The notes beneath the pieces are model-generated. The model did no database searches. It was given only the letters and a program-made list of their open reading frames with translations, and had not been told where the DNA came from. This document shows, piece after piece, positions 88 through 46,848 of a DNA stretch of 64,000 nt. Source of the DNA: a virus (taxonomy: Duplodnaviria; Caudoviricetes); IMG/VR virus record IMGVR_UViG_3300028886_000059, positions 1 through 64,000 of that record, one strand, 5' to 3'. How positions within the stretch are numbered: position 1 is the stretch's first letter; every line of letters begins with the position of its first letter. The translations under genes were made by a program, and so were the position numbers.

Positions 88-3000
88 TTAAATGTCATAA
101 ATAAATGCGGCCACAGGGCGAACAACGACACTGTAAAACTTGCTGCCGTTGTTGACGTCACCAGTATTGAAATGCACGAACCAAGCATTGTTGCTGCCGT
201 TCTCAGCAACAGACCAGTAGATGCTGTTAGTAGGAATGTTAAAAGGTGTTGTAGTCACGCCCGCGTCATAAACCCTTTTCAGGATATTGGCGAATAACGG
301 GAGCAGAGCCTCGCTGTTCGGATTCTCGTTGGCGTTTTCCTTAACACATCTTCCACCTGCCTCATACGTCTGCTGGCCGCAACTCTGATAGAAGAAGTTG
401 TAGATTCGCGCCAGCAGTCCAGCAGTAGGCAACAGCCATTTGTTACGTTCGTACTGCGTGTTAAGCGTTCCTTCGACGGTTGGCCTATACACATGACAGG
501 CGAATGCGGCTGGGTAGTACATCTGCCTGTATCTTGCAGGTGACGAAACACCCTGTGCCGTCATTGCCGCAACAAGAGCCTGCATAGCATCCGCAAGTTC
601 CGTCGGAGTAGTCGGGTATGACTCGCCGATGTAGCCGTTGATGATGGCCTTTGCATGGTTGATGACGATGTTGTTCTTATTCTCGATGTCGAAGTCACCA
701 ACAGCAACACCGCTGCCGAACACCTTGAAGCCGTCATCAGTACCAGCATCCAAATAGTCGTTTCCGCTGCTGTTGATGTAGGCGTTTGTCATACCATTAC
801 CGCCGATGTTCGCCATCGCCGTATCAACTGCGTTTGAAAGACCTGCGGCTGTGGCAATCTCGTTATACACCGATGACGGGAATCCGTTTGTACCGCCAGC
901 ATCAGGATAGATACCCCAAACATGCGAACCAGTGTTATACGTTCCATCGGTGCTTTGGCATACCGCATTCTCTTTGGCATACACCCAATACTTACGCTGT
1001 GAAGCCGAAATTGTGTCAACCTTCACGATAGTACCGACCAGTTCCTTTGACGGGTCGAACTCATCATCAAACGCGCCGTCGGCATAGGCGAAGTCGCCAA
1101 TCTTCGGCAGTCGCTTATGGAATCCTACCTTCTTGTCATAGGTCATCACAGTGCCGTCAATCAGCGTTACCGTCATACGCAGGGTGAATGTACGGTATTC
1201 GTTGTTAGGATAAGTGTTGGTTACGTTCACCGTTCCCCTTACGGCATCCGTGATAGTCGCATAGGATGCTGCACCAGCCTCGACGAAAGCAAAGGTAATG
1301 GCCTCATGGCCGCTTACGACGGCGACGTTATTACCAACGTCATTAGTCGATGCTGCGCTCCAGTCGTTATGCGTTCCAAGCGTATAGAGGTACTTCTCGC
1401 CCCTAATCATCACGCCGTTCACGTCACGCTTCTGATAGTCGATATACAGCCTGTCATTCGGTATGGTATTCCCGCTCGGCACGGTCTGAATGTCGCCGAA
1501 CTTCCTGATAAGCTGGATGACCTCGGAGAATGAAAGCCATCTGTCATTGGCCGCACGCAGCATGACAACTTTTCCGTACATGTTGCACGTCGTAGCACCT
1601 GCCAGCCACATCAGCACGTCGGCCTTGGTGTCAGTCCAGTTGACGTGTCTGAGGTAAAGGAGTGTCAGCTTGGTCGGATTCGCGCCGCCAGCGGAACGCT
1701 CATCGAAGATGTCTCTGAGCATCTGTTGCACGTTCAGGCTTGGGCTGTTCGTGATGGTCAGAGAATCCAGCAGTGCGCCGCTCTCGATGGAAAGCGTAGT
1801 AAGGCTGGGCTGGCTTGTCAGCGACAAAGCCGTGATAGCGGATGGCAGTCTGAGGATGGTCAGTGAAGCCGTCTGAGGAACATTCACAGCACCGATGCTC
1901 GTCTGTCTGAGGTCTATCTCCTGACACAGCGTCAGCGCGTTAAGGTTCAGCGGTGCGCGGTCTGTAGCCGAAAGCGTCGTGCATCCCTTCAATGACAGCT
2001 TTCTGAGTCGCGTACCCGTTGCGATACGGAATGAAGCGGGTCTGAAAGCTGGCTCATAGCCATCCGTCGGCACGCTGACAGGCACGGCAGAAGGATTATT
2101 CTCCAGTGTCGCAGGTGTCGGGTAGTACGTCGTAGGCTCTGCGATAAGTTCCGTCAGGCGACGGCCATCAAGGTTGAATGCGATGTTCGGGTCGCATGAC
2201 ATATCGCCGATATTACCCACTGAGCGGTAGTAGTTCAAGCCGAACAGCGAAACGCCGTTATCGGAAATCACCACCGACGGCACGGTGTACTCCAGTACCT
2301 CGTTCGGTGCGACGCGGGTATATGTCGGCTTGGAGTCCGTTTGGAATCCGAAGCAGGGATAGAGATACTGGTGCGGCTTCACATGGAATGTGTACGTCGG
2401 CGTTGTCACACCGTCAGGCAGTGCCTTGGCGTTGAATGCCATAGAAGCACCTGCATCCGCAAGTCCAGTCAATCCGTTACGGGCATGTGACTGTGCAGGA
2501 AGGAACTCACCGAAAACGGCGTATGAAGCCATATAGACAAGTCGGCGGTTCATAAACTGCAACTCCGATTCCAGCTGGTCGCCCATTGACTGCGTAAGCG
2601 GGTCGATGGTGTCACGGCCTAAGAATCCCAGCATGGCGGGGAACTCGTAGCGGATTCGCGCTGCCTCGTTGAATGCAACCTGCGGGAAATAACGCTGGAT
2701 GTCGAAGATGTAGCGGTTCAGGGCTTTCCACACGCCGCTCATCGTGTCTGACTCTGCCGAGCCGATACCGCCAGTAAGCGCAGCCATCAGTGACAGGATG
2801 CTGTTCAAAGCCTGTGAAAGTTCATGCGTACCTTCCCACATTTCCTCGCAGAGATTGAACAACGTGTTCTGCCTACCTTCATAGCAGCAATCGGTATGGC
2901 CAGTGTCTTTGTCATCCCACGGGTGCATACGGTCAACGTAGTACGGCTTGGACTGGAAGCCGTTGTTGTCGGTTGCCAGCGTCGTGTCAACGTCATCCTG

Positions 3001-6000
3001 ATGCAGTTCAATAAGCCTCGTCACGGGGTCGATGACATAGTATGTGTTCTTTGAACAGTTGTCAGTACCTGCTATGAAATGGTTTTGGAAACAATAGTGG
3101 AATTTCAGCGATGACACCTTGAAATACGTGCCGATGTTCTGCCTTGCATCCTCTACAACGCATTCGATGAACTTCTGATTCACGGCTTCATGGTTGGCTT
3201 TCTGCGCGTCTGTCATTGAACCCCAGTTCATGCCTGTGTAATCGCGGATGTCAACAGTATCGTAGGCGTAGCCGTTCCAAAGGCCAGCATCCACCCATGC
3301 CCTGTCATAGAAATCCCAGCGTTTCAGCTTATAGTCGTTGGAGTCCGTGCCAGCATTGGAGCGACACCACCACTTCTCTTTCTTCTGAAAGTCGGTAAGA
3401 TTCTCCTGCTGAAGCTGTGCAAACGTACCACGGTACAGATTGATTCGCGGGCTGTGCAAGTACAGGAAATTCCAAGCGGCCTTGTATATGTTCGTCAGTC
3501 TTGACTTCGGGTATTCCAGTACCTCTCCGCCTGACTCTACCTCGTCCACTGCGCCGCCGTCGAAGCCGACGCACTTCTCGGCAGAAACCTGAACCGTCTG
3601 CCCTGTCACCTGACCCGTCTGCTCGTCAACGACATCGACAACGGAAGTCTTACGGTACATCCACGCCTCAGATGCAGGGTCATAGAAAACTTTCGCCTCC
3701 TGATTGCTATGCGCGACATCATCCCACGGTGCAACCATATCACCGAGAATGGTGTTGTTGTTAGCACCTTCTGCCATAGCGAAATAGTCGTGACCGTCGG
3801 GGCGGTAGTGTGCATCTCCCTCTGTCGTAATCTTGGAAGCCTTCTTGCTGTAGCCCCATGTCGGTTTATCCATCTTTCCAGGGCCGAATGCGCCTGGGCC
3901 ACGATAGACAGCGGAAGCAGGGTCTTCGTCATCCCTGCCAGCAGTGAAGAACATGACGGGCTCGGTATGCTTTGCGACCAATGCCGTAGGCGTGTCGCGC
4001 TGCAAAGAGTTCTGACCGCAGAAGCGTGTATGCAGTTCGTGATAAAGCCAGTTGATGCCTATCAGATGCGACTGCATGGAAGATGCGTAGTTGATTTTCA
4101 GCACAAGTTTCTGTGCAAGCGGCTGATTGGGAGAAATCATATAGCCACGTCCACGGTACTTCCCGTTTCCGTCAACCCATCCGTCGGGTACTGTCACATA
4201 GCCATCGGCATACGGATAATCCTTCGTTCCGTTTCCTACGGGGAAGTCAGAGCCGAGGTTGCCGCCATAGATGCTGACCACCATATTGCCCTCACCGTCA
4301 TCATGCGGCTGACCGACATGAATTGACGAGTGGAAGTCAGCAACGGCCACTTGGATGGTATCTTCAACGTCGCCTATCTTGAATTGCAGGTTACTGTAAT
4401 AATAGGTGTTGGCCGTCGTACCCTGTCTCTTGGGTTTCAGCGACTTCGTTTCCTTGCAGATAGTTCCCGAACATTCAGGCTGATATGTGCCATCGTAGCC
4501 GAAGCACTTCATCTCAATCCATCCCTTAGAGCCGCTGGTCTCCTTGATGTAAGGCTCTACGCCATGCCATACCATTGTCCGCAAGCCGTTTGCCTGACAA
4601 GCCTCCAGTGATACAAGGCCGTTTGTCTTTGTGATGGCATTGGCATTCTTCACGCGGATTTTCTCCTCGCTGGTCGGAAGCGTCGAGATGTAGTTCTGAA
4701 CAGCGGCCTTGGGGTCGATGGCCTGTGCCGTGTTATCCCAAATGCGGATTCCATAGATGTCTATATCCGCACCTGACTGGCCAATCTTGATGCCGCCGTT
4801 CGACATGGCAGCGGTACAGAACTCACGCGCACCTGACTCCGTGCTGAATCGCAGTTCACGGCAAATGACACCATTGATTAGCACACGCACAAGGTTCAAT
4901 GTCCCCCTTGCACGGCTTTGGTCGGCTGCAATAGCCAAACCGTCACCGTAGGTATTCGGAGCCACGTTAGGCACGATATTGATGCTGATATGTGTACGCC
5001 TGTCCTCACTCCAGCGGAAATCCGTTTCCGTCTCAACACCTTCTGAAAGGGCTGATGCCATAGTGCCTACCATCGGGCGCATACGAAGTCCGAGGAACGT
5101 GCCACGGCCTGCGTCAAGCACCTCGCAAAGCTGGATGATTGGGTCATCCTCGTTTACGACGTTACGGACACAGAAATCAATGTCAATGGTCATCGTGGAG
5201 TCGGGTGACGATATGAACTGCGCAAACGGGTTGTACTGGATATTCAGCAGACAGCCAGCAGGGATGCGTAGCACCTTGTTACCGTCATCATCGACAGTCC
5301 ATCCGTCCGTTCCGTCCATCTTGAATCCGCTGCTCCATGTACTTGCCACCACTGCGTTGTTGTTGCGGGCGTTAAGGATGCGCTTCGGGTTTGCCTCAGA
5401 GTTATTGCGGGTCTTGGGGTTCAGCAGGAAAACGGAGCCTGCCGTCGGCTGGAATCCTCCAGTATTATCCACCTTGACATACATATAGCCTGTGCCGTAG
5501 CTGTCGGCCAAGAAGTCAACGAGCGTTCCGTTGTCGTTTCGCACGGCATGTAAGAACGTGTCGAAGTCATCAGCGACGGCCTCTCCAGCGTTCTGCTCGA
5601 TTTCAAGCGTGGCGTTCAAGTCGTACTGCTGTCCTGCCTGTGCCGTGACCTCCTGATTGAAGTATTCCGTCTGTGTCGTTGTCAGGATGTTGTCGCTACG
5701 GTCTGTCATCAGCAATGAGAACGTCACGGGGTCGCCTTGGTTGGTATATACGCCATCAACAAGTTTAGGCGAATAGACGGCGTATTGACATACGCGGCCT
5801 GACACGAAGTTATCAATGGAAGTGGCAATACTCTGAATCAGCAGTCTCGGCTGCATCAAGGTTGACGGCTGGTTTGTGTTCACCATCATCAGCTGGTGCT
5901 CGATGACATCCGATGTGATAGTACCGCCGTTTCCGTCTGCCGCCGTGAGCCATGCCCTGACGGTATGAACACCAGTACGGAGGATGCCCTTCGTTCCTGC

Positions 6001-6840
6001 GCCGTCCTGACACTGCACGGTCATTGAGCCCTGCTGCGATGCCGTGTATTCAATGGTATCGTCATGGCCGCTGTAGCCGTCCACGCCCGACACTTGCAGA
6101 TGCAGGGTCTTTGCCACGTTACCCTCAATCATAAAGTTCAAGGGGAGCGATGTAAGCTGGCTGGCCTGTACTGGCTGCGCCCAATTCGTCTGCAATGTCA
6201 CGGACAAAGATACGGAAGCGATTTTCAGGATGACGTTACCGCTGGCCATAGTCGCATCGTCGCCGTTGGAGTCGGTATATCCGAACGTAGCCCTCAAGCG
6301 GATTTGGTTCTGACGGCCTGTAAGAAGGTACTGGCCGACGTTCACGGTTGTAGGATAGTCAACGGCTGACGGGTCGGAACTCGGTATAGGCTGTGATGCT
6401 ACCCTCGTCCAGTTCGCGCCGTCTGTGCTTCTTTCGATAATCAGCGTGCCGTTTCCGCTCATGCCCTCCTGTTCTGATGTCGCGGCGATGATGTGCAAGG
6501 CCGAGAATCTGAGGCTGGCATTGAACGGGTCGCCGTCCTTTACCGCATAGTTCCTTGATGTGTCACGGTCACAGTACAGACGTGCAACATAGGAGTCTGT
6601 CTGTGACGTAGAGATTGGTAGCTGCTGCTCGTCGAGCAACAGTTCCGCGTTTCCTACAGGGTCGCTGATGTAAGCGGCCTTGTCTGATGGCGACGCAAAA
6701 AGCTGGATGCTGTAGAAAGAGCCATCCTGCACCCATCGCACCGCGCCAGCCCTTTGGCCGAACACCTTCTTTATGAAAGCCTCGACCTCAGTGCCTTCGT
6801 GGTCATCCCACGCCTCTTGCAAATTGATAATGTCTGCCAT
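88..6840 (-). CDS. Giant virion/tail-associated protein with C-terminal C-type-lectin-like DGR variable domain
   Basis: 2250 aa; LRR-like stretch; ends YWSVAENGSNNAWFVHFNTGDVNNGSKFYSVVVRPVAAF, typical of CLec DGR targets. Confidence 0.85.
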   Translation of the reverse strand: MADIINLQEAWDDHEGTEVEAFIKKVFGQRAGAVRWVQDGSFYSIQLFASPSDKAAYISDPVGNAELLLDEQQLPISTSQTDSYVARLYCDRDTSRNYAVKDGDPFNASLRFSALHIIAATSEQEGMSGNGTLIIERSTDGANWTRVASQPIPSSDPSAVDYPTTVNVGQYLLTGRQNQIRLRATFGYTDSNGDDATMASGNVILKIASVSLSVTLQTNWAQPVQASQLTSLPLNFMIEGNVAKTLHLQVSGVDGYSGHDDTIEYTASQQGSMTVQCQDGAGTKGILRTGVHTVRAWLTAADGNGGTITSDVIEHQLMMVNTNQPSTLMQPRLLIQSIATSIDNFVSGRVCQYAVYSPKLVDGVYTNQGDPVTFSLLMTDRSDNILTTTQTEYFNQEVTAQAGQQYDLNATLEIEQNAGEAVADDFDTFLHAVRNDNGTLVDFLADSYGTGYMYVKVDNTGGFQPTAGSVFLLNPKTRNNSEANPKRILNARNNNAVVASTWSSGFKMDGTDGWTVDDDGNKVLRIPAGCLLNIQYNPFAQFISSPDSTMTIDIDFCVRNVVNEDDPIIQLCEVLDAGRGTFLGLRMRPMVGTMASALSEGVETETDFRWSEDRRTHISINIVPNVAPNTYGDGLAIAADQSRARGTLNLVRVLINGVICRELRFSTESGAREFCTAAMSNGGIKIGQSGADIDIYGIRIWDNTAQAIDPKAAVQNYISTLPTSEEKIRVKNANAITKTNGLVSLEACQANGLRTMVWHGVEPYIKETSGSKGWIEMKCFGYDGTYQPECSGTICKETKSLKPKRQGTTANTYYYSNLQFKIGDVEDTIQVAVADFHSSIHVGQPHDDGEGNMVVSIYGGNLGSDFPVGNGTKDYPYADGYVTVPDGWVDGNGKYRGRGYMISPNQPLAQKLVLKINYASSMQSHLIGINWLYHELHTRFCGQNSLQRDTPTALVAKHTEPVMFFTAGRDDEDPASAVYRGPGAFGPGKMDKPTWGYSKKASKITTEGDAHYRPDGHDYFAMAEGANNNTILGDMVAPWDDVAHSNQEAKVFYDPASEAWMYRKTSVVDVVDEQTGQVTGQTVQVSAEKCVGFDGGAVDEVESGGEVLEYPKSRLTNIYKAAWNFLYLHSPRINLYRGTFAQLQQENLTDFQKKEKWWCRSNAGTDSNDYKLKRWDFYDRAWVDAGLWNGYAYDTVDIRDYTGMNWGSMTDAQKANHEAVNQKFIECVVEDARQNIGTYFKVSSLKFHYCFQNHFIAGTDNCSKNTYYVIDPVTRLIELHQDDVDTTLATDNNGFQSKPYYVDRMHPWDDKDTGHTDCCYEGRQNTLFNLCEEMWEGTHELSQALNSILSLMAALTGGIGSAESDTMSGVWKALNRYIFDIQRYFPQVAFNEAARIRYEFPAMLGFLGRDTIDPLTQSMGDQLESELQFMNRRLVYMASYAVFGEFLPAQSHARNGLTGLADAGASMAFNAKALPDGVTTPTYTFHVKPHQYLYPCFGFQTDSKPTYTRVAPNEVLEYTVPSVVISDNGVSLFGLNYYRSVGNIGDMSCDPNIAFNLDGRRLTELIAEPTTYYPTPATLENNPSAVPVSVPTDGYEPAFRPASFRIATGTRLRKLSLKGCTTLSATDRAPLNLNALTLCQEIDLRQTSIGAVNVPQTASLTILRLPSAITALSLTSQPSLTTLSIESGALLDSLTITNSPSLNVQQMLRDIFDERSAGGANPTKLTLLYLRHVNWTDTKADVLMWLAGATTCNMYGKVVMLRAANDRWLSFSEVIQLIRKFGDIQTVPSGNTIPNDRLYIDYQKRDVNGVMIRGEKYLYTLGTHNDWSAASTNDVGNNVAVVSGHEAITFAFVEAGAASYATITDAVRGTVNVTNTYPNNEYRTFTLRMTVTLIDGTVMTYDKKVGFHKRLPKIGDFAYADGAFDDEFDPSKELVGTIVKVDTISASQRKYWVYAKENAVCQSTDGTYNTGSHVWGIYPDAGGTNGFPSSVYNEIATAAGLSNAVDTAMANIGGNGMTNAYINSSGNDYLDAGTDDGFKVFGSGVAVGDFDIENKNNIVINHAKAIINGYIGESYPTTPTELADAMQALVAAMTAQGVSSPARYRQMYYPAAFACHVYRPTVEGTLNTQYERNKWLLPTAGLLARIYNFFYQSCGQQTYEAGGRCVKENANENPNSEALLPLFANILKRVYDAGVTTTPFNIPTNSIYWSVAENGSNNAWFVHFNTGDVNNGSKFYSVVVRPVAAFIYDI
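103..220 (-). repeat. DGR variable repeat VR1
   Basis: 118-bp near-copy of 46181-46300; differences at codon positions 1-2 of NNC/NNT codons. Confidence 0.9.
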
Positions 6841-27173: not shown

Positions 27174-30100
27174 TCAAATCAAACCTGTTAGTTTACTGTC
27201 TATCGACCCTAAATGATTATCCAAGTGGTTCAGAATATCCCTGTTGGTACGCTTGATGTCAAGCAGGTACTCATTGCGCGTGACGGCCAGCATCCTGATG
27301 GATTCCAACTCGTCATTCTTCGGTGTAGAGATGCCCGACATGTTTTGCAGTACCGTAAGAATCTGCTGCCGAACGTCGTTGCCCTGCAAGGTGGCCTGCT
27401 GCTGTGCTACGGCTATTCCGAGGTAGGTCTCGAACTGGTCATAAGTGGCCTTGTCTGACATGTTCATCGTGGCCTTTTGGTCGGTGTACGACGTAGTACC
27501 CATCAGTTCATGGATGAGTTTCGCCTCGTCAGCATAGCCCTCCTTTGCCGCCGTGATAGCCTGACGCAGATTGTTAAGAAGCTGGGCGCGTTCCTCTTCT
27601 GTGTAGTTGCCGCGCATGATGCTGGCATACTGTTCCTGCCATTCTTCCAGCCGTTTGTCGAACTCGTCGCCAAGCACGAACCTGTCGATGAATGCTTCGG
27701 TAAGTGCCTGTGAAATATTGTCGGCGAACGTCTGTGCGTCAGATGTCATATCCATCAGTGCCGAGCGGAACGTGCTGCGCAGGTCGGCAATGGGATAATT
27801 AAGCTGCTCCAGCACGTCGGTAAGCCCCGTGATGTCGAAGATGTGCTGTGTCTGCTCCTGCATCTCCTTGGCCTGCAAGCCCCATTCCGTCGCAAGCCGC
27901 TGCATGGCCTCCGCCATTTCCTCCTCGCTCTTTCCGCTGTTCATAATGGCTTCATATTTCTGCTGGATGCTGTTCAGCCATGTGTCGAACTGCGAATTAA
28001 GGATGAATTTCTCCACAAGTTTCTGTGCAAGCAGTGTCCTGATGTCGGTCACGAAGTCCTTTGTGCCAGCACGCATATCCATCAGTGCGGAAAGGAAATC
28101 GTCACGCATACTGGTGATGGTATCGTCAACCTCCTCCTCAACGACTTCGGGAACATATTCAATCTGTGCCAGTGTGTCGAGCAACGGCTGGACGGCCTCA
28201 CCACACAGCTTTTGCAGTTCGATAAGCTGCTGGCGTATGCGTTCCATAGCCGCCGTGTCGCCTGCCTCCAGTGCGTTGTACCATGCCTCGTTGATGGCAT
28301 CCAACTGACTGCCGAACTGCTTTTCTATCAGCTTGTCAATCATCTGCTCGGTCATCTTCCGTGCTATATCCTTACCGAACTTGTCAGCATCGGCCTCCAT
28401 ATCCATCAGGGCAGAAACGAAAAGCCCGCGCAGGTCGCTGAATCCCTCCTTGGCCTCTTCCACGACTTCCTCCTTCACTTCCCTGAATATACCGAAAGCG
28501 TTAAGAATCTGCTCGGCTATGGGCTGCACTTCGTTGAATACGTCTTTCAGCTGGTCAAGATACGGCGACATTGCGGCTACAGCCGTCTGCCATGTGGCGT
28601 TTGCCATGTTCATTGCAGCGTCGAAAGCAACCTGCATTTGGTCGAGCAAAGGCTGAATCAAGGTAGGTATCAGCATTCCCTCGATAATCTTTTGCGCCAT
28701 GATGCGCCCGACGTTCTTAGCCCAATCGTCAGCCGTCATTTCCATATCCATCAAGGCAGAAGCCCATTCGCTTGCCATGCCCTTGAAGGTGGTGTCGCCG
28801 ACTTCTTCCTCAATGTCCTCGACCTTTTCCTCTATCAGACCGAAAGCATTCATAATGGCTTCGACTATCGGGCGAATCTCGCCGAACTGGTCTTTCAGTT
28901 CATTAATCTTTGGCAGCACGGCGGCAATTACGGAGTCTATCGTGCCACCGCTTGCGATTGCACCGTCAAAGGCAGACTGCAAGGCATCAAGATACGGCTG
29001 TAGCATCTTTGCAGCAACCATTTCCTCGATAATCCTTTGTGCCATCACGCGGCCTACGCTCTTCGCCCAGTCATCTGCCGTGGCCTCCATATCCATCAGC
29101 ATGGAAATCCAAGAATCGGTAAGGCTGGAGAATGTCGTATCTACCTCTTCTTCTATCTCATCCAAGTCTTCCTTGAATATTCCAAAGGCATTCAATATCT
29201 GCTGGACGATGGGCTGTAGTTCATCAAACCCGTCTTTCAGCTTTTCGATTTCGGGTGACAGTGCGGCAATGGCACTCTCCCATGTCGCGCCCTCTTCCGA
29301 CATCACCTTGTCAAAGGCATCCTGCAACTGGTCGAGCAAGGGCTGAATCATCTTAGCGGAAATCATCTGCTCGATGATACGCTGTGCCATCATCCTGCCG
29401 ACACTTTCAGCCCAATCGTCGGCTGTCGCCTCCATATCCATAAGGGTTGAAATCCAGTTGTCGGCCATATCCTTGAAGGTGGTATCTTTGACGGCATTGT
29501 TAAGGTTCAGGCGTTCACGAAGCTGCTGTGCGGCCTCGATGGTAATACTACGGGCTTGCACAAGTTCATCAAGCAGTGCGTCAATTATTTCTTGGTTGCC
29601 GCTTGCAACGGCCTCCATATACCGTTTGTTCCAGTCTTCAAGGTATGTGTCGAAATCGTCGAACGTCATGCCGTTGATGGTGAAAGGCACGTCAAGAACC
29701 TGTTTCTCCATCAAGTCCTGTAGCATGATGTTGTCCAGCCTTGTGCGGAAGCTGACGGCATCATCCTCCATATCCATAAGGGTGTCAAGGAAATCTTTTC
29801 GCAGGTCGCTGAACACAGACACCCGCTCTTCCTCCTGCTTTCCGATACCAAGGGCATCACGCATCTTCTGCACCAGTTCAGAAGCCTTTCCGAACGATTC
29901 CTCCATTTCTTTCAGAACCTCGTCAATGCTTTGCTGGCGGGCTGCGTCGGTCAGCGTCTCATTAGTAAGGAATCCAAGCAGCTGTTTGCCGAAATTCTCC
30001 ATCAACTCGCCAAGACCCATGCTTTCGATGATGGTCTTTTCCACCATTTCGCTAAGAAGCGTCTCACGTATCTTCCTACCCCATGCGTCTGCATCTGCAT

Positions 30101-33100
30101 CCATGTCAAGCAGCGTGTCAAGCAGTGACGAACGGATATTGCTGAATGCGTTGAGCGACTCGTCAACCTCATAGCCTATGCCGTCCGCTATCTGCTGTGC
30201 CTTTCCTGCAAGTTCCTCGCGCTTCGCTACCTGCTCTTCAAGAAGCTGTGTCAGCCTTGCCTCGTCACCTGCCTCCAGTGCCTCCTTATATGCGGCCTTC
30301 CAGTTTTCAAGCCATTCGGTAAAGTCATCGCCAAGTACCATGCTTGACACCAAGTCCTCAAACATGACGCGCTGGATTTCCTTCTTCCACGATTCGCCGT
30401 CCTGCTGCATGTCGGTAAGGGTGGTAAGCCACATGTCACGCAGGTTACTGAAATACTCCTGCACCTTTTCCTCTTCATCTTCCGCGCCTGTTATCGCGTT
30501 GATGATGCCAAGCTGCTCAAAGTATGCCACCTGTTCGGCTGCATCGCCGTAAATCTTCTTGTATTCTTCAATCTTCTCGTTAATCATTTCGGCATATTCC
30601 TCATCGGTCATGTCGAAACTCATCCTGAGAATCCTTAGCTGACGGTACAGTTCATCAACGTCGATGCCGCCGTTCCAATACTGCTGCCAAACGTCATTCT
30701 TCGCCTTTTCGTATTCGGCTGCTGTAAGGCGGTTGGCACGCCCGTTTTGCAGGTCTGCCAAGCCCTGATACCATTCGGAAAGCCGCTTTTGGAAGTCATC
30801 GCCGAAGATAAGGTTGTTGATGACCATGCGATTCACCATCTTCTGCCAGTTCTCGGCCATTTCATCCATGACGGTCTCTGAGCCGTCCGCAAGGCTATAC
30901 AGGGAATCCAAGAAATCGTCAAAGACATTCTCCTTAGTCGTTGTGGTCAGCCTTTCGTTCAGTGCGTCGATGGCCTCCTCCGCAGCCTTTCCAGCCTCTA
31001 TGAAGTTGTCAAGGTACTTTTGGGCTTCGCTATGTATTGAGTTCCAAAACTGCGGTGCTTCGTGCTTTATCTTTTCAAGTTCCTGCCAGCTGAGATTGAA
31101 CAGATTGGAAACATTGTCATCCATCTGCCGCCAAATATCCTCGTTGTACTGTTTCAGGTACTCCCAGCTTGTATCTTCGTTGACGTTGTAGCCGTTGGAA
31201 TGGCTGAACCAGCCCGCACCGCTGCCAGCCCATCCCCTGTATATCTCTGCCGCTGCCTGCTGTGCGTCCTGCAATGTTTTCAAAGCCTGCCTGCTGTAGT
31301 CGATGGCCTGCTTACCGTAGGACTTCTCCATCAGTTCGCGTTCATACTTGATATTCTCTTCCCAATAGTCAAGGATGCCGCCCCACTTTTCGACTGCCTC
31401 CTCATAGGCCGACCAGTCCTCACCGCCGCCGAAAAGGTTTGCCACCATGCCTCCAAGACCGCTGAACACGCTGCCGACGATGTTTCCGACACCGCTGACA
31501 ACAGAACCGATGATTTGCGGTATCTGCTCAAGCACGGCCTCGATGACCGTTGCCACCTTGTCAAGTATTTGGTCTATGAATGCCGCTGGGTCATCACCAA
31601 GGGCATCAATGATGGAAAGGATGGCTCCGATGATACCGCCAATCTGCTTTCCTGCTTCGCCGAACAGCCCGCCGATGTTGGTAGCGGCCTCCTTGCTGCT
31701 GTCGCCGATAAGCCTGATAAGGTTGCCGACGGCAAGCACGAAGCCCGTAAGCGTACCCGATGTTATCTGACCGAGCACTGTATCGAAGTTCTGCAAGCCC
31801 TTTGCGGCTGCTTCCGTGTTCTGACGCAGCTGTGTGCCTGTCTCATCCTTGCGCTTCTGTTCGTTCTCAAGTGCCTGCTTGGTCTCGTCAGCCCATTTCT
31901 TAGCGGCTTCCAAATCCATGCCAGCAATATACTGCTGCTGAACGGTAGTTGCTTCTGCCACTGCCTTTTCAGCCTCCGACACTTTCCTGACGGCATCGGA
32001 ATGGGTTTCAGTGGCCAATTTGACATTCTTGACGCTATCCCTGTACTCGTTGGCAAGCCTGCCGATTTCATCCCATGTCTCTTTCTTGAACGGGTTGGAA
32101 ATCTTTACGCCGCCAGCTTCGGCAAGTTCATTACGAAGGTCGGCATAAGCCTTCTTAGCCTCTGCGCCCAAAGCCTTGAACTCGGTGGTCTGCATGTACT
32201 CCTCCACCTCCTTCATGGTTTCCTTCGCTATATCTTCCAAGATATTGCCGATGCCGCTGAACGTCTGCGTCCAGTCGATGCTTTGTGCAAGGCTCTGCGC
32301 ATCCAGCGCGGCCATCTTGGTGTTCTTTTCCTCTTCAAGGCTTTTCCTGCGCCATTCGCTTCTTTCGTTGGCTATCTTCTCGTCGTATTCATGTGCAATG
32401 GCATATTTCTGCTGTTCCACTGAACCGTACTCTTTCAGGTAGTCAAGCATGGCATGGGCTTCATCCTCGTAACGCTTCTGCACCAAACGCTTGTATTCGG
32501 CATTCTCTTTCAGGCGCAAAGCCTGTAGTTCGTCCATCTGCTCCTTGGCAAGCTGTAGGTTGATATATCCAGCCTTTCCTTCTTCCGTGTCGGAATAGGA
32601 CTGCCCGCTGTCTTGGTTCTTGGCCTCCCAAACGCTTTTGTTGAACTCATAGAGTTTCTTCTTCATTTCCTCTTCGCGCCTGTCGATGGCTTCAAGGTTC
32701 AACCTGTGCTGTTCATCCTGCTGGGCGCGTGTCCTTTCTTCCGCATTCTCTATGGTGGCAATCTTGGCGGCGTTCACAGCCTTGATGGTGGATTCGGTCT
32801 GTGCGGCTGCTTCCTGTTCTGCCTTTTGCTCCAGTTCGTACAGCTTCTGACGAAGGGCGGCATTGGCCTTGGCGTTCTTTTCTGCATCCTGACGAGCCTT
32901 TTCCTGTTCCTTGTTACGCTTATCGGCATTAGCATCGTAAGCCTTGATACCGCTGGCTTGAAGTGTTTTCTTCTCGGCATCAATCTCCTTCTGCATGTTA
33001 CCTTCGATAAGTTTTATCCTATCATTGCTTTCCTTGGTAAGCTGGTCGGAAATCTTCTTTGCAGCGGCCTTGCGCTTCGCCATGATTTGATTCACCTGCT

Positions 33101-35018
33101 CATCGGTGATGACAGGCAGACCGCCATAGGTGTATGCGCCGACGGACTTCAACTCGTCACGGGTGACATTGCCCTTTTCGCTGATGTCACCTATTCCGTA
33201 TTTGCCATTATCGTTCTTTTGCAGCTTATAGACCGCACCTCCGTTATCGACGGTTTTGTTGTACTGGCGTTCTATCTGTTCCTCATAAGCCTTTTGCAGC
33301 TGGCTTGCATAGGCCGCAGCCTTGGCACGCGACATCATGGCGGCTACTACGGCATCGGTATTCGTCACAAGAAGCCTTTCGGCATCGCTAACGCTGTCAA
33401 CGGCAAAGCCGAGGTTCTTGAACGCATCCTGATTATCCTTGATGAATCTTTCCTTCGCCTTGAGGTCATCGCCAAGTTCATCCCATTTCTTCTGCAACTC
33501 CCTATAGCTGATTAGCTGCTTAGACGCACTTTCCGCAACGGACTTAGCCCATTGCTCATGCTGTTCCTTGATGGCCTTGATATGCGCCTCCTTTTCTTCG
33601 CGGGCTTTCTTTTCTGCATCCGTCTCTGATGTCAGTGCCTTGACGATGGCATAGATGGCAGTGCCGAGGATGGCCAGCAAAGAAATGATTGCGCCTATCG
33701 GGTTGGCTCTCATGGCCGTGTTAAGACCTTCCTGTGCCACGGTGGCCGCTGTAGTCGCAGCAGTCTGAACGCCACGCGCCTTTGCAAGCGCAAACGTCTT
33801 GACCTCCTCGATGGCCAGCATCACATTGCTGGTTTTCTTGACAAGGTTGTATGTCGTTTCCAGTCCGACGAGCACGGCCAGCACCGACTGCACCTTTGCC
33901 TGAATCTGTGCCAGCTTCTCGTTCTCGGAATTGAAGAGCCCCATAACGCCAGTGACAAGACCTGCCGCACCTGCCACACCCTGCAATCCGACCTTCAACG
34001 TGGTAAGGTTCTTATTCGGGTCAGCGAAATACTGCATGGTGGCACTTGCAAGGGTCATTTGACGGCGAAGCTGTCCTGCCTGTTCCGCTAACTGCTGGAA
34101 CTCAGGAGTACCCTGACGGCCTGCCGCAATCATCTGCATCAGTTCATCACGCACATTCATTATCTGCGTGCGCATCCTGACATGGTGGCCGTTGATATTC
34201 GACAGTTCATCGACGTATTTCTTCTGTTCGTCTGTGAGTTCGTTGTATTCCTTCTTTGCGGCTTCCAGTTCCTTGACGGCCTTTCCCCACTTGGCCTCCA
34301 CCTCGTCGATGTCCTTCATGCTGACAGACTTGTCACCTGCCTCTATCTTCTTCCAAAGGTCATCAAGTATGGAGTTGTAGGCTTCAACGTCGCCGACGGC
34401 CTTTGCCATCCGACGTGCCATCTCGTCCGATTCCTTTGACAGTTCCTTTAGGCTGTTCCTGATTTCGTCGGTCTTGATACGCTTGGAGGCTTCATCCATC
34501 TGTTCACCCATCTGCTGAATGGCTGGGATGTTGTTCTGCCTGACGGCATCGGCCATCTTCCGCAGCTGGCTCTGCTGCTCCTCGTATGCGGCACGCTGAC
34601 GCTGGATTTCTGCCGTAAGTTCTGCATTTGCCCTTTGCAGTTCACGAATCTGCGCGATATTGTCATCATTGGTCTTGATGTTGCCAGCAATGGTGCTTCC
34701 GTCACCAAGGGCTTTCGCCATAGCGTCAAGTTTGCCTTTCAGACCTTCAAAGTATTTGTCAAGGTTATCGCACATCAAGACAACCTGCTCATCGAACTTC
34801 TTCAATTCGCCCGTAGGGTTGGAAAGGTCGATTTTCACGCTGACAGACTCAAGCATCCTTTCGTTGTCGCGCACCTTCTTGAAGAACTGGTCAACACTCA
34901 TGCCAGTCTGCTCGATGACCTGCCTTGTCTTCTTCATGCCATCCCTCACGTTCCGCAAGGTCTGTGAAAAGCTGCTGTCATCACCGACAATATCTATATG
35001 CAAATCGTATTCGCCCAT
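27174..35018 (-). CDS. tape measure protein
   Basis: 2614 aa, helical; ANPIGAII hydrophobic segment; ~100-aa internal repeats. Confidence 0.9.
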   Translation of the reverse strand: MGEYDLHIDIVGDDSSFSQTLRNVRDGMKKTRQVIEQTGMSVDQFFKKVRDNERMLESVSVKIDLSNPTGELKKFDEQVVLMCDNLDKYFEGLKGKLDAMAKALGDGSTIAGNIKTNDDNIAQIRELQRANAELTAEIQRQRAAYEEQQSQLRKMADAVRQNNIPAIQQMGEQMDEASKRIKTDEIRNSLKELSKESDEMARRMAKAVGDVEAYNSILDDLWKKIEAGDKSVSMKDIDEVEAKWGKAVKELEAAKKEYNELTDEQKKYVDELSNINGHHVRMRTQIMNVRDELMQMIAAGRQGTPEFQQLAEQAGQLRRQMTLASATMQYFADPNKNLTTLKVGLQGVAGAAGLVTGVMGLFNSENEKLAQIQAKVQSVLAVLVGLETTYNLVKKTSNVMLAIEEVKTFALAKARGVQTAATTAATVAQEGLNTAMRANPIGAIISLLAILGTAIYAIVKALTSETDAEKKAREEKEAHIKAIKEQHEQWAKSVAESASKQLISYRELQKKWDELGDDLKAKERFIKDNQDAFKNLGFAVDSVSDAERLLVTNTDAVVAAMMSRAKAAAYASQLQKAYEEQIERQYNKTVDNGGAVYKLQKNDNGKYGIGDISEKGNVTRDELKSVGAYTYGGLPVITDEQVNQIMAKRKAAAKKISDQLTKESNDRIKLIEGNMQKEIDAEKKTLQASGIKAYDANADKRNKEQEKARQDAEKNAKANAALRQKLYELEQKAEQEAAAQTESTIKAVNAAKIATIENAEERTRAQQDEQHRLNLEAIDRREEEMKKKLYEFNKSVWEAKNQDSGQSYSDTEEGKAGYINLQLAKEQMDELQALRLKENAEYKRLVQKRYEDEAHAMLDYLKEYGSVEQQKYAIAHEYDEKIANERSEWRRKSLEEEKNTKMAALDAQSLAQSIDWTQTFSGIGNILEDIAKETMKEVEEYMQTTEFKALGAEAKKAYADLRNELAEAGGVKISNPFKKETWDEIGRLANEYRDSVKNVKLATETHSDAVRKVSEAEKAVAEATTVQQQYIAGMDLEAAKKWADETKQALENEQKRKDETGTQLRQNTEAAAKGLQNFDTVLGQITSGTLTGFVLAVGNLIRLIGDSSKEAATNIGGLFGEAGKQIGGIIGAILSIIDALGDDPAAFIDQILDKVATVIEAVLEQIPQIIGSVVSGVGNIVGSVFSGLGGMVANLFGGGEDWSAYEEAVEKWGGILDYWEENIKYERELMEKSYGKQAIDYSRQALKTLQDAQQAAAEIYRGWAGSGAGWFSHSNGYNVNEDTSWEYLKQYNEDIWRQMDDNVSNLFNLSWQELEKIKHEAPQFWNSIHSEAQKYLDNFIEAGKAAEEAIDALNERLTTTTKENVFDDFLDSLYSLADGSETVMDEMAENWQKMVNRMVINNLIFGDDFQKRLSEWYQGLADLQNGRANRLTAAEYEKAKNDVWQQYWNGGIDVDELYRQLRILRMSFDMTDEEYAEMINEKIEEYKKIYGDAAEQVAYFEQLGIINAITGAEDEEEKVQEYFSNLRDMWLTTLTDMQQDGESWKKEIQRVMFEDLVSSMVLGDDFTEWLENWKAAYKEALEAGDEARLTQLLEEQVAKREELAGKAQQIADGIGYEVDESLNAFSNIRSSLLDTLLDMDADADAWGRKIRETLLSEMVEKTIIESMGLGELMENFGKQLLGFLTNETLTDAARQQSIDEVLKEMEESFGKASELVQKMRDALGIGKQEEERVSVFSDLRKDFLDTLMDMEDDAVSFRTRLDNIMLQDLMEKQVLDVPFTINGMTFDDFDTYLEDWNKRYMEAVASGNQEIIDALLDELVQARSITIEAAQQLRERLNLNNAVKDTTFKDMADNWISTLMDMEATADDWAESVGRMMAQRIIEQMISAKMIQPLLDQLQDAFDKVMSEEGATWESAIAALSPEIEKLKDGFDELQPIVQQILNAFGIFKEDLDEIEEEVDTTFSSLTDSWISMLMDMEATADDWAKSVGRVMAQRIIEEMVAAKMLQPYLDALQSAFDGAIASGGTIDSVIAAVLPKINELKDQFGEIRPIVEAIMNAFGLIEEKVEDIEEEVGDTTFKGMASEWASALMDMEMTADDWAKNVGRIMAQKIIEGMLIPTLIQPLLDQMQVAFDAAMNMANATWQTAVAAMSPYLDQLKDVFNEVQPIAEQILNAFGIFREVKEEVVEEAKEGFSDLRGLFVSALMDMEADADKFGKDIARKMTEQMIDKLIEKQFGSQLDAINEAWYNALEAGDTAAMERIRQQLIELQKLCGEAVQPLLDTLAQIEYVPEVVEEEVDDTITSMRDDFLSALMDMRAGTKDFVTDIRTLLAQKLVEKFILNSQFDTWLNSIQQKYEAIMNSGKSEEEMAEAMQRLATEWGLQAKEMQEQTQHIFDITGLTDVLEQLNYPIADLRSTFRSALMDMTSDAQTFADNISQALTEAFIDRFVLGDEFDKRLEEWQEQYASIMRGNYTEEERAQLLNNLRQAITAAKEGYADEAKLIHELMGTTSYTDQKATMNMSDKATYDQFETYLGIAVAQQQATLQGNDVRQQILTVLQNMSGISTPKNDELESIRMLAVTRNEYLLDIKRTNRDILNHLDNHLGSIDSKLTGLI

Positions 35019-39768: not shown

Positions 39769-39771
39769 GGC

Positions 39772-43447: not shown

Positions 43448-43465
43448 TTATGTTGTTTGATGTTG

Positions 43466-43536: not shown

Positions 43537-43655
43537 ATTTGAAGCGGTTTTTGAAGCACATACACCTTATTATATATATAAATAGGCTGCAAATAAAGCG
43601 TTTTAAGACGTTCTTTTCATTGCAGCCTATAGAATACCAAAGAAAGCGATTTAAT

Positions 43656-44279
43656 TTATCTGCCGCCTGTTCTGATGCCATAGATAAGCCAAATTTCATC
43701 AATGGCCATCTCCAAGTCTGCAAGAAACTGGCGAAACTCAAAAGGCTTGATAGGTCTTTTTCTGCCTGTCAGAAAATCGACCCTGACGAACATGTTCACC
43801 AAATCGAACTCAGAAAGCGACCCTTCGGAATAGTTCAGGAGCGCACTGGCATACATCGAATAGTGCAGCGTGGCCTCCTTTCTGAACCGTGGAAGTCTGC
43901 CTCCGTCATACAGTGCCTTGCAGAACGTGTCATAGTCTGCAAGTTCAAAGGGATAGATGCCATACGACTGCAATGTTTTTACTATCTCGCGGAAATTCCC
44001 GTGCAGGTCGATGTACTGGTTGCACATGTCATCCTGCGACATCGGCTTTCTTTCAGGATTCGGAAACCCGTTCATCATCATGTTCAGGTTGAAATTCTCC
44101 ACATCCTTAAACGATTCTCCACCAATGGCCATCTGCCTGAAATCTTCCGCAGCCGACCATGAGCAGAAAGCCACCGTAAGCCCGCATCCGAGTATAAGCC
44201 GTGTCTTCCGAAACGCCGAGACTTCATCCGTCGGCATCCGTAGCTTCTGAATAGTTGGTAAACTGAAATGCTTCATCAC
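43656..44279 (-). CDS. hypothetical protein
   Basis: 207-aa ORF at the operon end. Confidence 0.6.
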   Translation of the reverse strand: MMKHFSLPTIQKLRMPTDEVSAFRKTRLILGCGLTVAFCSWSAAEDFRQMAIGGESFKDVENFNLNMMMNGFPNPERKPMSQDDMCNQYIDLHGNFREIVKTLQSYGIYPFELADYDTFCKALYDGGRLPRFRKEATLHYSMYASALLNYSEGSLSEFDLVNMFVRVDFLTGRKRPIKPFEFRQFLADLEMAIDEIWLIYGIRTGGR

Positions 44280-44482
44280 TTTCTGCTTTCACACTTATGA
44301 CAGGTCTTGTCATCCAACTTCTGATTCCAGTAGGTACAGAAACGGCCAGTAGGCTGCTTGATGTCAAACCTGCATTTGCCGTGCTTCTTCCGTCGGTCAA
44401 TGTCACGTTTTGAACCTATCGCGCTACTGGGCTTCTTTACCAAATTTCGGCAGATTTCTTTCAGACCTTCTTTTGTGTTCAT
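44276..44482 (-). CDS. small Cys-rich protein
   Basis: ORF overlapping its neighbours' start/stop codons. Confidence 0.55.
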   Translation of the reverse strand: MNTKEGLKEICRNLVKKPSSAIGSKRDIDRRKKHGKCRFDIKQPTGRFCTYWNQKLDDKTCHKCESRK

Positions 44483-44880
44483 ACCTTCAATTCCATTATG
44501 CCGCCAGCAATCTTGTAGTAAGCCTGTTGCAGTTCATGCAGGCAGCTGATGCAGCCGTAACGCTTCCACTCGTTGCTTGGTGTCTTGATAAAAACACTGT
44601 CAATGTCCTGCGACATGGTATAGAACACCTTGGCACGGGTTCCGTACATGATGCAGCCCTGCGTCTCGTCATGCCTGAATCCGAAACGCTCCAGCAGCCG
44701 TACTTCCGTCAGGCTGATGCCCTCCAGCTTGTCAGGCTCAAAGTAGCCCTTCTCATCAAGATAGACGCTGTTCTGCGACAGTTCCATCACACAGCCAATC
44801 CTGCTGCCGCTGACTGGCACGTTTACCTTCGTCCTGACAACATCCCCGATGTGCAGGTCTCTGATAGTCATTCCGTTCAT
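44479..44880 (-). CDS. YopX-like/phage protein paralogue
   Basis: DLHIGD...GISLTE..LERFGF...LHELQ. Confidence 0.65.
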   Translation of the reverse strand: MNGMTIRDLHIGDVVRTKVNVPVSGSRIGCVMELSQNSVYLDEKGYFEPDKLEGISLTEVRLLERFGFRHDETQGCIMYGTRAKVFYTMSQDIDSVFIKTPSNEWKRYGCISCLHELQQAYYKIAGGIMELKV

Positions 44881-45302
44881 TTCTTCACCTTCTTTTGTTT
44901 AGGTACTCTGACTTTCAACTCACCACGGCCATGCTTCCATGCCATCTGTTGAACAACATGCAGAAAAGCCCGCTTGGGATTCAGGTACTCGACAAACTGG
45001 CCGTTACCGTGGTTGATGGTAAGGTGTGCGCCGCCGTCATTCAGCAAATCGACACGCGCCGACACGCCATCGCCCTTGAAGCTGATGACAACGCCATCCA
45101 CCTTTGCACCCACCACCTTCAACGCTTCCGTATCAGTCAGCGCAACAGGCTCGGCCTCGCCCAAATGTACGATGGTCATTGTGTTCTCGTCAAAGGCATC
45201 TGTACGCCCGATAGTTCCGATTTGGTGCAGTTCGCCATTGAAGCGCACCACGTCGCCAGCGTGTAAGTCACGGCCAGCCATTTTCATTTTCTTCTGTTCC
45301 AT
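44877..45302 (-). CDS. YopX-like/phage protein paralogue
   Basis: DLHAGD...EPVALT...LHVVQ. Confidence 0.65.
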   Translation of the reverse strand: MEQKKMKMAGRDLHAGDVVRFNGELHQIGTIGRTDAFDENTMTIVHLGEAEPVALTDTEALKVVGAKVDGVVISFKGDGVSARVDLLNDGGAHLTINHGNGQFVEYLNPKRAFLHVVQQMAWKHGRGELKVRVPKQKKVKK

Positions 45303-45435
45303 TTTGATTCCCGTTTTTGTCGTTTCTTCTTTGATTCGTTTCTTCGCCGTTCTGTTTCACACGGCCTGACACCTTGGCAGGAGCATCCGTTTCCGTATGT
45401 TCTGCTTCGGGTATAGTATTTGCATGATGAACACT

Positions 45436-45771
45436 TCATAACCTTCTTTGCGGCTCGTTCTTTATGCAGTCACTAACATATCCGTCGATGTCGATTTCAA
45501 ACATCGTCATTCCGAGAGAGTTGCAGCCGACTTGCGCCGTCTGATAGCCAGTCTTTGCCTTATCGCCGTACTTATGGATTTCTTCTACAAACATCCTGTC
45601 AATACTTGCAGGGTTCGTGATATGCGGGTTCTGACGCTTAAACGTCTCTTTCCGCGATTCCACCGTAGCGGCCAACTGTTTGACAAGGCTAAGATTCTCG
45701 CGCAATTCCTTGATTCCGTTCTGTAGCGTCATCAGGTCATACATGAACGCCTCATTTACCTCCGCTTTCAT
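45436..45771 (-). CDS. hypothetical protein
   Basis: ORF. Confidence 0.6.
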   Translation of the reverse strand: MKAEVNEAFMYDLMTLQNGIKELRENLSLVKQLAATVESRKETFKRQNPHITNPASIDRMFVEEIHKYGDKAKTGYQTAQVGCNSLGMTMFEIDIDGYVSDCIKNEPQRRL

Positions 45772-46123
45772 ACTTATCCGAATTTTGTTTCAGCCATTTC
45801 ACACATCCGATGATGTTCTCAAAAAGCGTTCCACCGTCGAATGATTCAAGGTGTAAATCATAGTCGATGCAGAAATACGTCACCTCTTCACCGAATATGC
45901 AGCGGTCATAAACAATGCCATCTTCATCTTTCAGTGTCAGCGGCAAAAGGTTCATCAATGCCGCCAGCGACCAGCACGGCACGGCATTATTAGCCCATTC
46001 CGACGTGATTCTGTAGCCTCCGACAGTAGGGATTCGGTACAGGTCAGCCGTATCGGGATTGATACCCAAATCGGCCAGCTGTGCCTCCTGCTTCCGCGTC
46101 GTACAATACTGTTTCTCTTCCAT
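45752..46123 (-). CDS. hypothetical phage protein
   Basis: CTT..Q...L..LGINPDTAD...PCWSLAALMNLLP pattern. Confidence 0.7.
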   Translation of the reverse strand: MEEKQYCTTRKQEAQLADLGINPDTADLYRIPTVGGYRITSEWANNAVPCWSLAALMNLLPLTLKDEDGIVYDRCIFGEEVTYFCIDYDLHLESFDGGTLFENIIGCVKWLKQNSDKYESGGK

Positions 46124-46132
46124 ACGCATGAT

Positions 46133-46159
46133 GGCGGGGCTGTAAGAACAGCCCTCGCC
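46133..46159 (-). other. hairpin/cruciform downstream of DGR VR2
   Basis: ggcggggctgt-aaga-acagccc(t)cgcc. Confidence 0.8.
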
Positions 46160-46171
46160 GAATGTAGAATG

Positions 46172-46848
46172 TTAAATGTTAAATGCGGCCACAGGGCGAA
46201 CAACGACCTGCTGGGAGACTTGCCGCCGGTGTTGACGAGACCAGTAGTGAAAAGCACGTACCAAGCATAGTAGCTGCTGTACTCAGTAACAGACCAGTAG
46301 TATTCTTCCATATCGAATGGCTCGCCGCCAACAAATTTTAACGCTTCATTCAGCCCTTTGTCGGCATAGTGACACATCAGCACCAGCATAGGCAATGCAG
46401 GGATGCACTCACCACCTGCCAGCGGTATGTCCGTTCCGATTTCCTGAATGTGCTTCGTGCGCTCCACACACTCCCAATCCAGCAGGGCATCACATTCACG
46501 ACGGCGGTACGATGGATGTTCCGACGGGCATTTGTCGGTGTCCTGTACCAGTGCATACTTGCCAAGGTCTTTCAATGCCACACAGAAAGAATGGCCGTCA
46601 TGCACGATTCCGATGTACTTCACGCCCTTTGCATCTGACTTGTCATTGTCGCCAGTGTACGGCTTATAGCCGCCATCCTCATAGACAAGGTACAGACCGT
46701 TAGGCACTGTGTTTCCGCTGGCCACGGCCACGGGTGCAGGCTTACTTACTTCGCGCTTTTCACCAGCCATAATGAAATCCAAGGCTTTCTGCGCATCTTC
46801 TCCAAATTCACGGTATAGTTCCAACCGCATTTGCTGATTCTCTGTCAT
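46172..46848 (-). pseudogene. second DGR target (DUF1566/CLec-like), frameshifted within its VR
   Basis: LNEALKFVGGEPF..YYWSVTEYSSYYAWYVLF; 2 extra nt relative to VR1 put the terminal VVVRPVAAFNI* out of frame. Confidence 0.75.
46181..46300 (-). repeat. DGR variable repeat VR2
   Basis: 120-bp near-copy of 103-220. Confidence 0.9.

Follow-up and report, generated by a model that had tools for sequence, protein, structure and literature searches.

Can a single diversity-generating retroelement (DGR) supply variation to two genes that lie 46-47 kb apart on one phage genome, and what kind of protein would the more distant gene encode? These questions are raised by a stretch of 64,000 nucleotides (referred to throughout as the window) that comprises bases 1-64000 of the 116,414-base IMG/VR record IMGVR_UViG_3300028886_000059, representing a large, uncultured phage of Bacteroidota (Caudoviricetes) from the cattle gut (rumen). 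A first-pass annotation, made from the letters of the window alone, noticed that segments 103-220 and 46181-46300 align with each other, and attributed both to one DGR having two targets, with a template repeat (TR) and a reverse transcriptase (RT) expected to the left of position 1. We find that one complete DGR very probably does serve two variable repeats (VRs): VR1, in the gene for a 2250-residue protein adjoining the cassette (target 1), and VR2, in a remote gene for a small protein with a predicted C-type-lectin fold (target 2). The evidence consists of a complete cassette recovered across the ends of the record, substitutions that fall almost exclusively at adenines of the TR, conserved signals at the 3' ends of both VRs, and recurrence of the same two-target layout in related phages. 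The allele of VR2 in this record carries a frameshift, which bears both on the strength of this reading and on the role of the remote protein.

A retroelement cassette across the junction of a circular genome

The phage genome is circular, with a length of about 116,190 bp, since the last 224 bases of the record (116191-116414) repeat its first 224 (window 1-224), 127 of them being exactly identical and divergence thereafter occurring only inside VR1. At the record end the assembler met a second allele of VR1. IMG/VR classes the record as 'linear' because its overlapping ends carry unlike VR1 alleles, so that the end repeats are non-identical; the CheckV estimate of completeness is 98%. Circular phage genomes that bear DGRs can be misjudged in this way. 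A blastn search of window 44000-50000 against deposited phages returned a single 163-nt match and nothing else.

All long open reading frames (ORFs) of the window are carried on the minus strand, as is the cassette, which spans the junction of the circle directly left of window position 1. It is complete and canonical, with the minus-strand order target 1 with VR1, hairpin, avd, TR and RT (Table 1). The TR and RT are located where the first-pass annotation had placed them, to the left of position 1.

Table 1. Locations of the cassette, its variable repeats and targets, and a dispersed repeat (window positions unless marked as record positions)
Feature	Location	Strand	Characteristics
RT open frame	record 114151-115686	minus	511 aa; reverse-transcriptase motifs
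TR	record 115440-115563	minus	124 nt, 42 A (34%); Asn-rich translation, mostly AAC/AAT codons
Avd	record 115652-116185	minus	177-aa ORF; predicted four-helix bundle
VR1, allele a	105..227	minus	123 nt matching TR, no gaps
VR1, allele b	record 116295-116414	minus	far record end; one extra codon in (AAC)4 run
VR2	46183..46302	minus	120 nt: 118 matching TR, 2 extra
Hairpin after VR1	48..74	minus	GC-rich, z -4.4 (DNA fold -12.5 kcal/mol); 30 nt downstream of VR1
Hairpin after VR2	46133..46159	minus	GC-rich, z -5.6 (DNA fold -12.8 kcal/mol); 23 nt downstream of VR2
Target gene 1	88..6840	minus	2250 aa; VR1 at C-terminus; adjoins cassette across record junction
Target gene 2	46172..47190 without frameshift; ORF as found 45955..47190	minus	Lcl_C/DUF1566 protein, C-type-lectin fold
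2-nt insertion site	46205..46212	minus	placed by alignments; frameshifts target gene 2 inside VR2
Repeated 80-150-nt element	10559-10706, 16911-17058, 43391-43551, 51224-51603, 58180-58218, 59296-59425		ahead of gene blocks

The RT is most closely related, among proteins of known structure, to that of the DGR of Bordetella phage BPP-1: its best match in a phmmer search of PDB was 8ub7_A (E=2.7e-20), far ahead of the retron and group II RTs that came next in the same search (E of at least 1e-4). When aligned with the BPP-1 enzyme (bRT), the motif PIGNLTTQLFAN corresponds to PIGSLTSQLFAN, and RFVDD to RYMDD; the IGxxxSQ-type motif and the YxDD-type catalytic box of the DGR clade of RTs are thereby both represented. 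The TR sits directly upstream of the conserved RT domains, and its translation, like the VR1 tip, gives a weak direct match to Lcl_C. We also observed that the TR is in frame within a long open frame leading into the RT, 511 aa in length here and, around the corresponding RTs of related phages described below, 543 aa (G003 and G005) or 401 aa (G006). Because the conserved N-terminus of the RT starts before the first ATG that follows the TR, translation of the enzyme may include the TR as an N-terminal extension.

Since direct family searches gave nothing for the candidate Avd (accessory variability determinant) or for the small target, fold prediction was needed for both. An AlphaFold2 (AF2) model of Avd built with 36 homologs is a four-helix bundle (predicted TM score 0.67), the fold expected of an accessory variability determinant, and a Foldseek search with this model retrieved 2gsc, 8ub7_B, 4dwl_B and 2rld with a probability of 1.00 and target-normalised TM scores of 0.79-0.90, at E-values of only 0.01-0.3. 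Two of these matches, 8ub7_B and 4dwl, are respectively the Avd chain of a DGR ribonucleoprotein and the Avd of BPP-1. The family PF05635 is matched by five of the 37 homologs of Avd, and not by Avd itself. The predicted protein is longer, at 177 aa, than the matched solved Avd and S23-family bundles (about 110-128 aa), and it has an N-terminal extension and, separating helices 3 and 4, an insertion (about residues 113-135) that the model predicts poorly.

Adenine-limited differences and putative target-site signals at two variable repeats

A BLAST search within the 116-kb record detected four copies of the repeat, representing the TR, two alleles of VR1 (VR1a and VR1b, at the two ends of the one assembled record) and VR2, and no further ones; two targets are therefore recognized. 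The similarity originally noticed between 103-220 and 46181-46300 is genuine (83% identity over 90 ungapped nt, family D9; BLAST E=6.9e-44), and in the coding sense it reaches farther 3' than those limits, with a second conserved block (49-95 and 46133-46179, family D20; 83%) that contains a GC-rich hairpin. Both copies form the 3' ends of minus-strand ORFs. As the first-pass annotation had reported, differences between them are confined to codon positions 1 and 2 of the minus-strand frame (15 of 15 in segment 131-220), and its view that neither copy is the template is borne out by the adenine-rich TR.

When each VR is aligned with the TR, substitutions occur at TR adenines in 15 of 15 cases for VR1a, which besides these has one G/A difference at its 5' edge, and in 21 of 21 for VR1b, which besides has the one extra codon listed in Table 1. 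For TR with its 34% adenine, the probability that 21 of 21 substitutions would fall at adenines by chance is about 1e-10. In the core of VR2 the corresponding figure is 21 of 22, and three further non-adenine mismatches in its alignment lie 5' of where homology begins. The expectation that mismatches should fall only at TR adenines was accordingly realized at VR1, and at VR2 with one exception and a 2-nt insertion, considered below. Taken together, the adenine-limited differences at both VRs and the lack of other copies in the record sustain the proposal of one DGR with two targets.

Both VRs also possess features of a target site. The final 22 nt at the 3' end (GTTGTTCGCCCTGTGGCCGCAT) are invariant across the TR and all VRs, in the manner of an IMH (initiation of mutagenic homing) element, and each VR is followed by a GC-rich inverted repeat whose predicted stability was equaled by 0 of 200 shuffled sequences in either case, whereas DNA folding of the sequence after the TR revealed no such hairpin (z +0.8). 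The hairpin after VR2 occupies a 42-nt gap before the next gene (start 46129) and is conserved with the block containing the hairpin of VR1. In BPP-1, a hairpin after the VR but not the TR reportedly marks the target for mutagenic homing, a finding credited to Guo et al. in 2011; by analogy, the hairpins after VR1 and VR2 are putative homing signals.

Similar gene ends might also arise without any retroelement, if the two copies were paralogous lectin modules at the C-terminus that owed their divergence to ordinary mutation or recombination, and the two targets do share only their last 48 residues at the protein level, as a duplicated module would. Such modules would not be expected to include a third, adenine-rich copy beside a DGR-type RT and Avd, to differ almost only at TR adenines, both among the four alleles of this phage and in four further phages, or to be followed by hairpins after the VRs and not after the TR. 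We set this explanation aside as virtually untenable, since the TR, RT, Avd and adenine pattern already refute it.

From homology to BPP-1 we infer that the DGR would operate by mutagenic retrohoming. The RT, together with Avd, would copy RNA of the 124-nt TR into cDNA, misincorporation would occur opposite the adenines of the TR (42 of its 124 bases), and the cDNA would then replace a homologous VR. Because the VRs of both genes would be written from one TR, the binding tips of both proteins would sample the same sequence space.

The remote target and its frameshifted allele

In an intact sister phage (G001; L006:3001-4020) target gene 2 comprises 339 codons, while most homologs of its product are about 225 aa in length and start at an internal Met (MTENQ). 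The first-pass estimate of about 225 aa thus agrees with most homologs, and not with the open frame of the sister phage or with the frameshifted one here. An AF2 model of target 2 predicts a C-type-lectin fold for residues 160-339 (pLDDT about 97), preceded by 145 residues that are helical and poorly predicted. By Foldseek the best structural match is 4eps, a pilus-tip protein of Bacteroides ovatus (E=1.6e-4) that is itself a DGR target (PMC8143477), followed by 8q4e, the C-terminal domain of Legionella Lcl (probability 0.96), and then by many C-type lectins. Direct searches of Pfam, NCBIfam and PHROGs with the target 2 protein gave no match; PF07603 is annotated on 10 of its homologs. The VR encodes the C-terminal strands of the predicted lectin domain, which bears the motif YWS..E...AW...F..G. 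Inspection by eye revealed no hydrophobic N-terminal stretch, hence no signal peptide, in agreement with the first reading of this gene.

That first reading overlooked a difference in length of 2 nt between the two copies, and with it the frameshift in VR2. The inserted 2 nt sit one codon from an AAC. The resulting ORF departs from the intact reading frame, whose end would be ...VVRPVAAFNI-stop (at 46172-46174), and runs about 70 codons on, over the start of the next gene. Because this deprives the lectin fold of its two final beta-strands (328-331 and 334-336 in the model), the VR2 allele in this record is, judging from the model, probably a null allele.

Natural variation at this site was assessed from sequencing runs available as contigs, which drop rare variants, and VR2 was compared in two of them (X1 and X3). 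Run X1 is possibly the source sample, hence not independent; it provided an unbroken Logan contig of 21.5 kb at a depth of 57, with VR2 letters identical to those of the record, including the extra 2 nt. Run X3, from cattle gut in another study, provided one contig across 45402-47252 having near-identical flanks and a different VR2: of the 27 substitutions listed for this contig, 18 are within 46205-46281, as are all of its six indel events. As rebuilt from the tables, the X3 allele is in frame, lacks the 2-nt insertion and has five codons in place of the four AAC of the TR; all of its changes that were traced occur at TR-adenine positions. Pieces from two other runs that had been placed on VR2 proved, by their loose ends, to be the TR (X4 record 12) and VR1 (X5 record 18); these runs have no contig over VR2, and no inference was drawn from them.

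Among homologs of target 2 the C-terminus is intact in 84 of 84, and in the 52 that were aligned, variability is greatest at the VR columns templated by AAC or AAT, against a conserved scaffold. Several of these homologs have five variable codons at the position of the four AAC of the TR here, and VR alleles that are 3 or 6 nt longer than the TR at (AAC)n were encountered in VR1b, in X3 (window 46205-46230) and in two related phages (G003, +3 and +6; G005, +3 and +3). These alleles apparently represent variation in loop length by slippage, of the kind described by Wu et al. 2018.

Could the frameshift simply be an artefact, introduced when the assembly took a chimeric path across hypervariable sequence, with the gene intact in the real population? 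Hypervariable repeats do disturb assembly (Benler 2021, PMC8008677), and the record itself ends in an alternative branch of VR1. The independent Logan assembly of X1 nevertheless reproduces identical letters over 2001 nt at its depth of 57, a result that checks the assembler and not the sample, and we consider an artefact improbable.

A second possibility is that VR2 marks a decayed former target, a frozen pseudogene, and that the DGR now diversifies VR1 only. Several observations favor such decay and count against an active second target. The insertion in VR2 has a length not divisible by three, and next to it stands a single change at a site other than adenine (T>C), both of them non-canonical; and in the probable source sample (X1) it was represented by a single, frameshifted allele, at the depth already given, whereas VR1 is represented by two alleles at the record ends. 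Also weighing against our interpretation of the system as a whole are the restriction of the documented VR2 variation to differences between samples, compared as contigs, an RT that scores below the Pfam cut-off for RVT_1 (21.6 against 29.6 bits) and an Avd for which no direct sequence-family match was found in Pfam, NCBIfam, PHROGs or, by sequence and profile, PDB. Decay of VR2 is, on the other hand, difficult to reconcile with its intact shared 3' end and hairpin, with the different, in-frame allele in X3 bearing changes at TR-adenine sites between near-identical flanks, and with the intact genes of the sister phage and of all 84 homologs; one allele, moreover, is no proof of a clonal site when contigs drop rare variants. 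We accordingly judge decay to be quite unlikely, and retain the interpretation that one DGR serves both VR1 and VR2. Because the 3' end and hairpin of VR2 are untouched, a later round of retrohoming could overwrite the whole frameshifted VR2 and restore its frame. Since the frameshifted allele is the only one that contigs display in the probable source sample, target 2 would seem to be dispensable, at least in the short term.

The chromosomal setting of target gene 2 differs in part from that first proposed. Along the minus strand, genes for the large terminase (53549-54904) and portal (52117-53562) are followed by an island of about 10 kb, then by those for the major head protein (38686-39768) and connector-like proteins. 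The island consists of small genes, including those for HTH/excisionase-like and acetyltransferase-like proteins, target 2, an amidoligase and a glutamine amidotransferase. Assignment of target gene 2 to an 'early region' is not upheld, as the gene is on the same strand as all else and lies between portal and major head genes; the description 'accessory' is fair for the island itself. At its downstream end the amidoligase gene (phrog_2443, E=1e-55) adjoins the glutamine-amidotransferase-like gene (41729-43478, minus strand), the pair being preceded by one copy of a repeated element (43405-43551). Upstream of target gene 2 is a gap of 240 nt (47191-47429) with a possible 59-aa ORF (47248..47427) whose product would have a Lys-rich tail and paired Cys residues; the sister phage retains this gap, with an overlapping frame there.

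Two-target layouts in related phages and known systems

A layout with one adjacent and one distant target is present in at least four related phages. The sister phage (G001; 119 kb, 79% protein identity at target 2) has the same TR, VR1 and VR2, with VR2 intact, and its substitutions fall at TR adenines in 13 of 14 cases and, in VR2, in 20 of 20. In each of G003, G005 and G006 an RT is accompanied by an A-rich TR with matches in two VRs, one adjacent and the other belonging to the small protein 19-30 kb away; substitutions are at A only in G003, at A except for one edge position in G005, and include a few non-A in G006. The location of the small gene varies, being 4 kb downstream of the head gene in G005 and, in the complete 87.6-kb genome G006, between those for DNA polymerase and primase-helicase (L024:5923-6597), 28 kb from the RT and TR; the module in G006 contains an exonuclease, an ssDNA-annealing protein and the DNA polymerase before the small target, and the primase-helicase and a helicase after it. 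A further candidate, G004, was set aside as a case of this layout, since the copy beside its truncated RT is not adenine-rich (22 A, with mismatches mostly at non-A) and is not a usable TR; this copy (L036, at the start of the G004 record, about 1104-1244 and 310-414, plus strand) could represent a TR that has decayed or an additional VR. The 57,417-bp record of G003 has a terminal overlap of 127 nt exactly at the 5' edge of the VR of its small target, the gene at which the circular contig was opened, and this is suggestive of a branch; circular contigs can break anywhere, however, and we do not use this overlap as evidence.

Target 1 had been called a giant tail protein in the first-pass annotation, a label that is unproven by the matches obtained: residues 95-1267 match phrog_24896, a family of unknown function, and the tip gives a weak match to Lcl_C (residues 2135-2243). 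Its comparison with PDB sequences gave no match, and the ESM Atlas yielded leads only, to clusters resembling CotH, Laminin_G_3 and LRR_5 (scores 0.84-0.92). About 12 kb of genes, including Ant-like and ParB-like ones, lie between target gene 1 and two other giant ORFs. The label of tail protein is still a reasonable one, by analogy, because target 1 is the target adjacent to the cassette, as Mtd is in BPP-1.

For the small protein, we give roughly even chances to a binder that is not part of the virion, whether cytoplasmic or released, and a somewhat lower likelihood to a second adhesin attached to the virion, leaving only a small share for other roles. The movements of its gene between modules suggest an accessory function in preference to a fixed role in the virion; set against this, the fold relatives of the protein are all surface adhesins. 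A broader and more tentative proposal, which we regard as possible although doubtful, is that the stand-alone DUF1566 proteins of about 225 aa, each having one conserved N-terminal helix and a lectin domain, constitute a mobile, DGR-diversified, non-virion family that provides a repertoire of binders inside the cell or after release, perhaps directed at variable host defence or surface molecules. It draws support from the presence of these genes in different modules, including the replication module of G006, from their being served always in trans by a cassette 19-47 kb away, and from the persistence of the phage in its population after loss of the protein by frameshift.

The cassette corresponds to the BPP-1 DGR (mtd-avd-TR-brt) in the order of a target with C-terminal VR, avd, TR and RT, in its homologous RT and the fold of its Avd, in adenine-specific differences between TR and VR, and in a GC-rich hairpin after the VR only. 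Unlike BPP-1, this phage has, about 47 kb away, an additional target that does not adjoin the cassette, lectin domains of Lcl_C/DUF1566 type in place of Mtd, an adjacent target as large as 2250 aa, an Avd enlarged by the extension and insertion described, a TR inside an open frame continuing into the RT, and hairpins 23-30 nt from the VR end.

Closer parallels are found in other phages. Bacuni phages F1-F4 of Bacteroides uniformis carry two DGR targets, one beside Avd, TR and RT and one distant (Hedzet et al. 2021, PMC8143477), and both of these targets have DUF1566 motifs and a C-terminal VR and resemble 4EPS of B. ovatus (PMC8143477), the best structural match of the small target here; the Bacuni phages are small, cultured siphoviruses from the human gut, whereas the present phage is an uncultured one of about 116 kb from cattle, with its distant target frameshifted. 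In Quimbyvirus ('Quimbyviridae') one DGR serves two C-type-lectin targets, one on the structural side and one distal, probably non-structural and within a defence island (Benler et al. 2021, PMC8008677). In Quimbyvirus the distal target is carried by the opposite strand, its neighbors being methyltransferases, a nuclease and a tRNA ligase, and the RT is split over three frames; here, by contrast, a single strand is used, the RT frame is continuous, and neighbors of the remote target are the HTH, acetyltransferase-like, amidoligase and glutamine amidotransferase genes. The gut myoviruses nd4 and nd12 have one TR and two unlike targets, tentaclin and tgt2 (Baykov et al. 2023, PMC10743442), of which tgt2 resembles the small target in being a small (234-294 aa) single lectin domain with short flanking helices and a C-terminal VR; both of their targets are inside the cassette and have a DUF6273 or tentaclin topology, while the small target here is of Lcl_C/DUF1566 type and remote.

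A survey by Wu et al. 2018 (PMC5758913) recorded numerous DGRs associated with phages in which an adjacent target is joined by a non-adjacent one within 50 kb. It also found that TR and VR differ in length in about 7% of DGRs, mainly next to AAC, with a frameshift in some. The target 47 kb away, the +3-nt alleles at (AAC)4 and the one +2-nt frameshift reported here do not differ in kind from these, although the lineage of this phage is apparently outside that survey. Non-adjacent targets, two-target phage DGRs and AAC-linked indels are thus all published elements, and the picture of how DGRs work is unchanged; what is new is a clean and complete specimen in a large rumen phage. Large metagenome surveys confined to the neighborhood of the RT miss remote targets (Roux 2021). 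That a remote target can reside in the replication module, as in a relative of this phage, and can be knocked out by an indel of the DGR type, bears on the role of non-structural targets.

Two further kinds of repeat were observed in the window. An ORF of 2614 aa (27174..35018) contains, at 27726-29813, a tandem array (families D1, D4 and D6) whose units measure about 345 nt (115 aa) and share a conserved core, and therefore encodes a giant protein built of repeated domains. A dispersed element of 80-150 nt (families D2, D3, D5, D11 and D18) recurs ahead of gene blocks at the locations given in Table 1, one copy heading the block that holds target gene 2.

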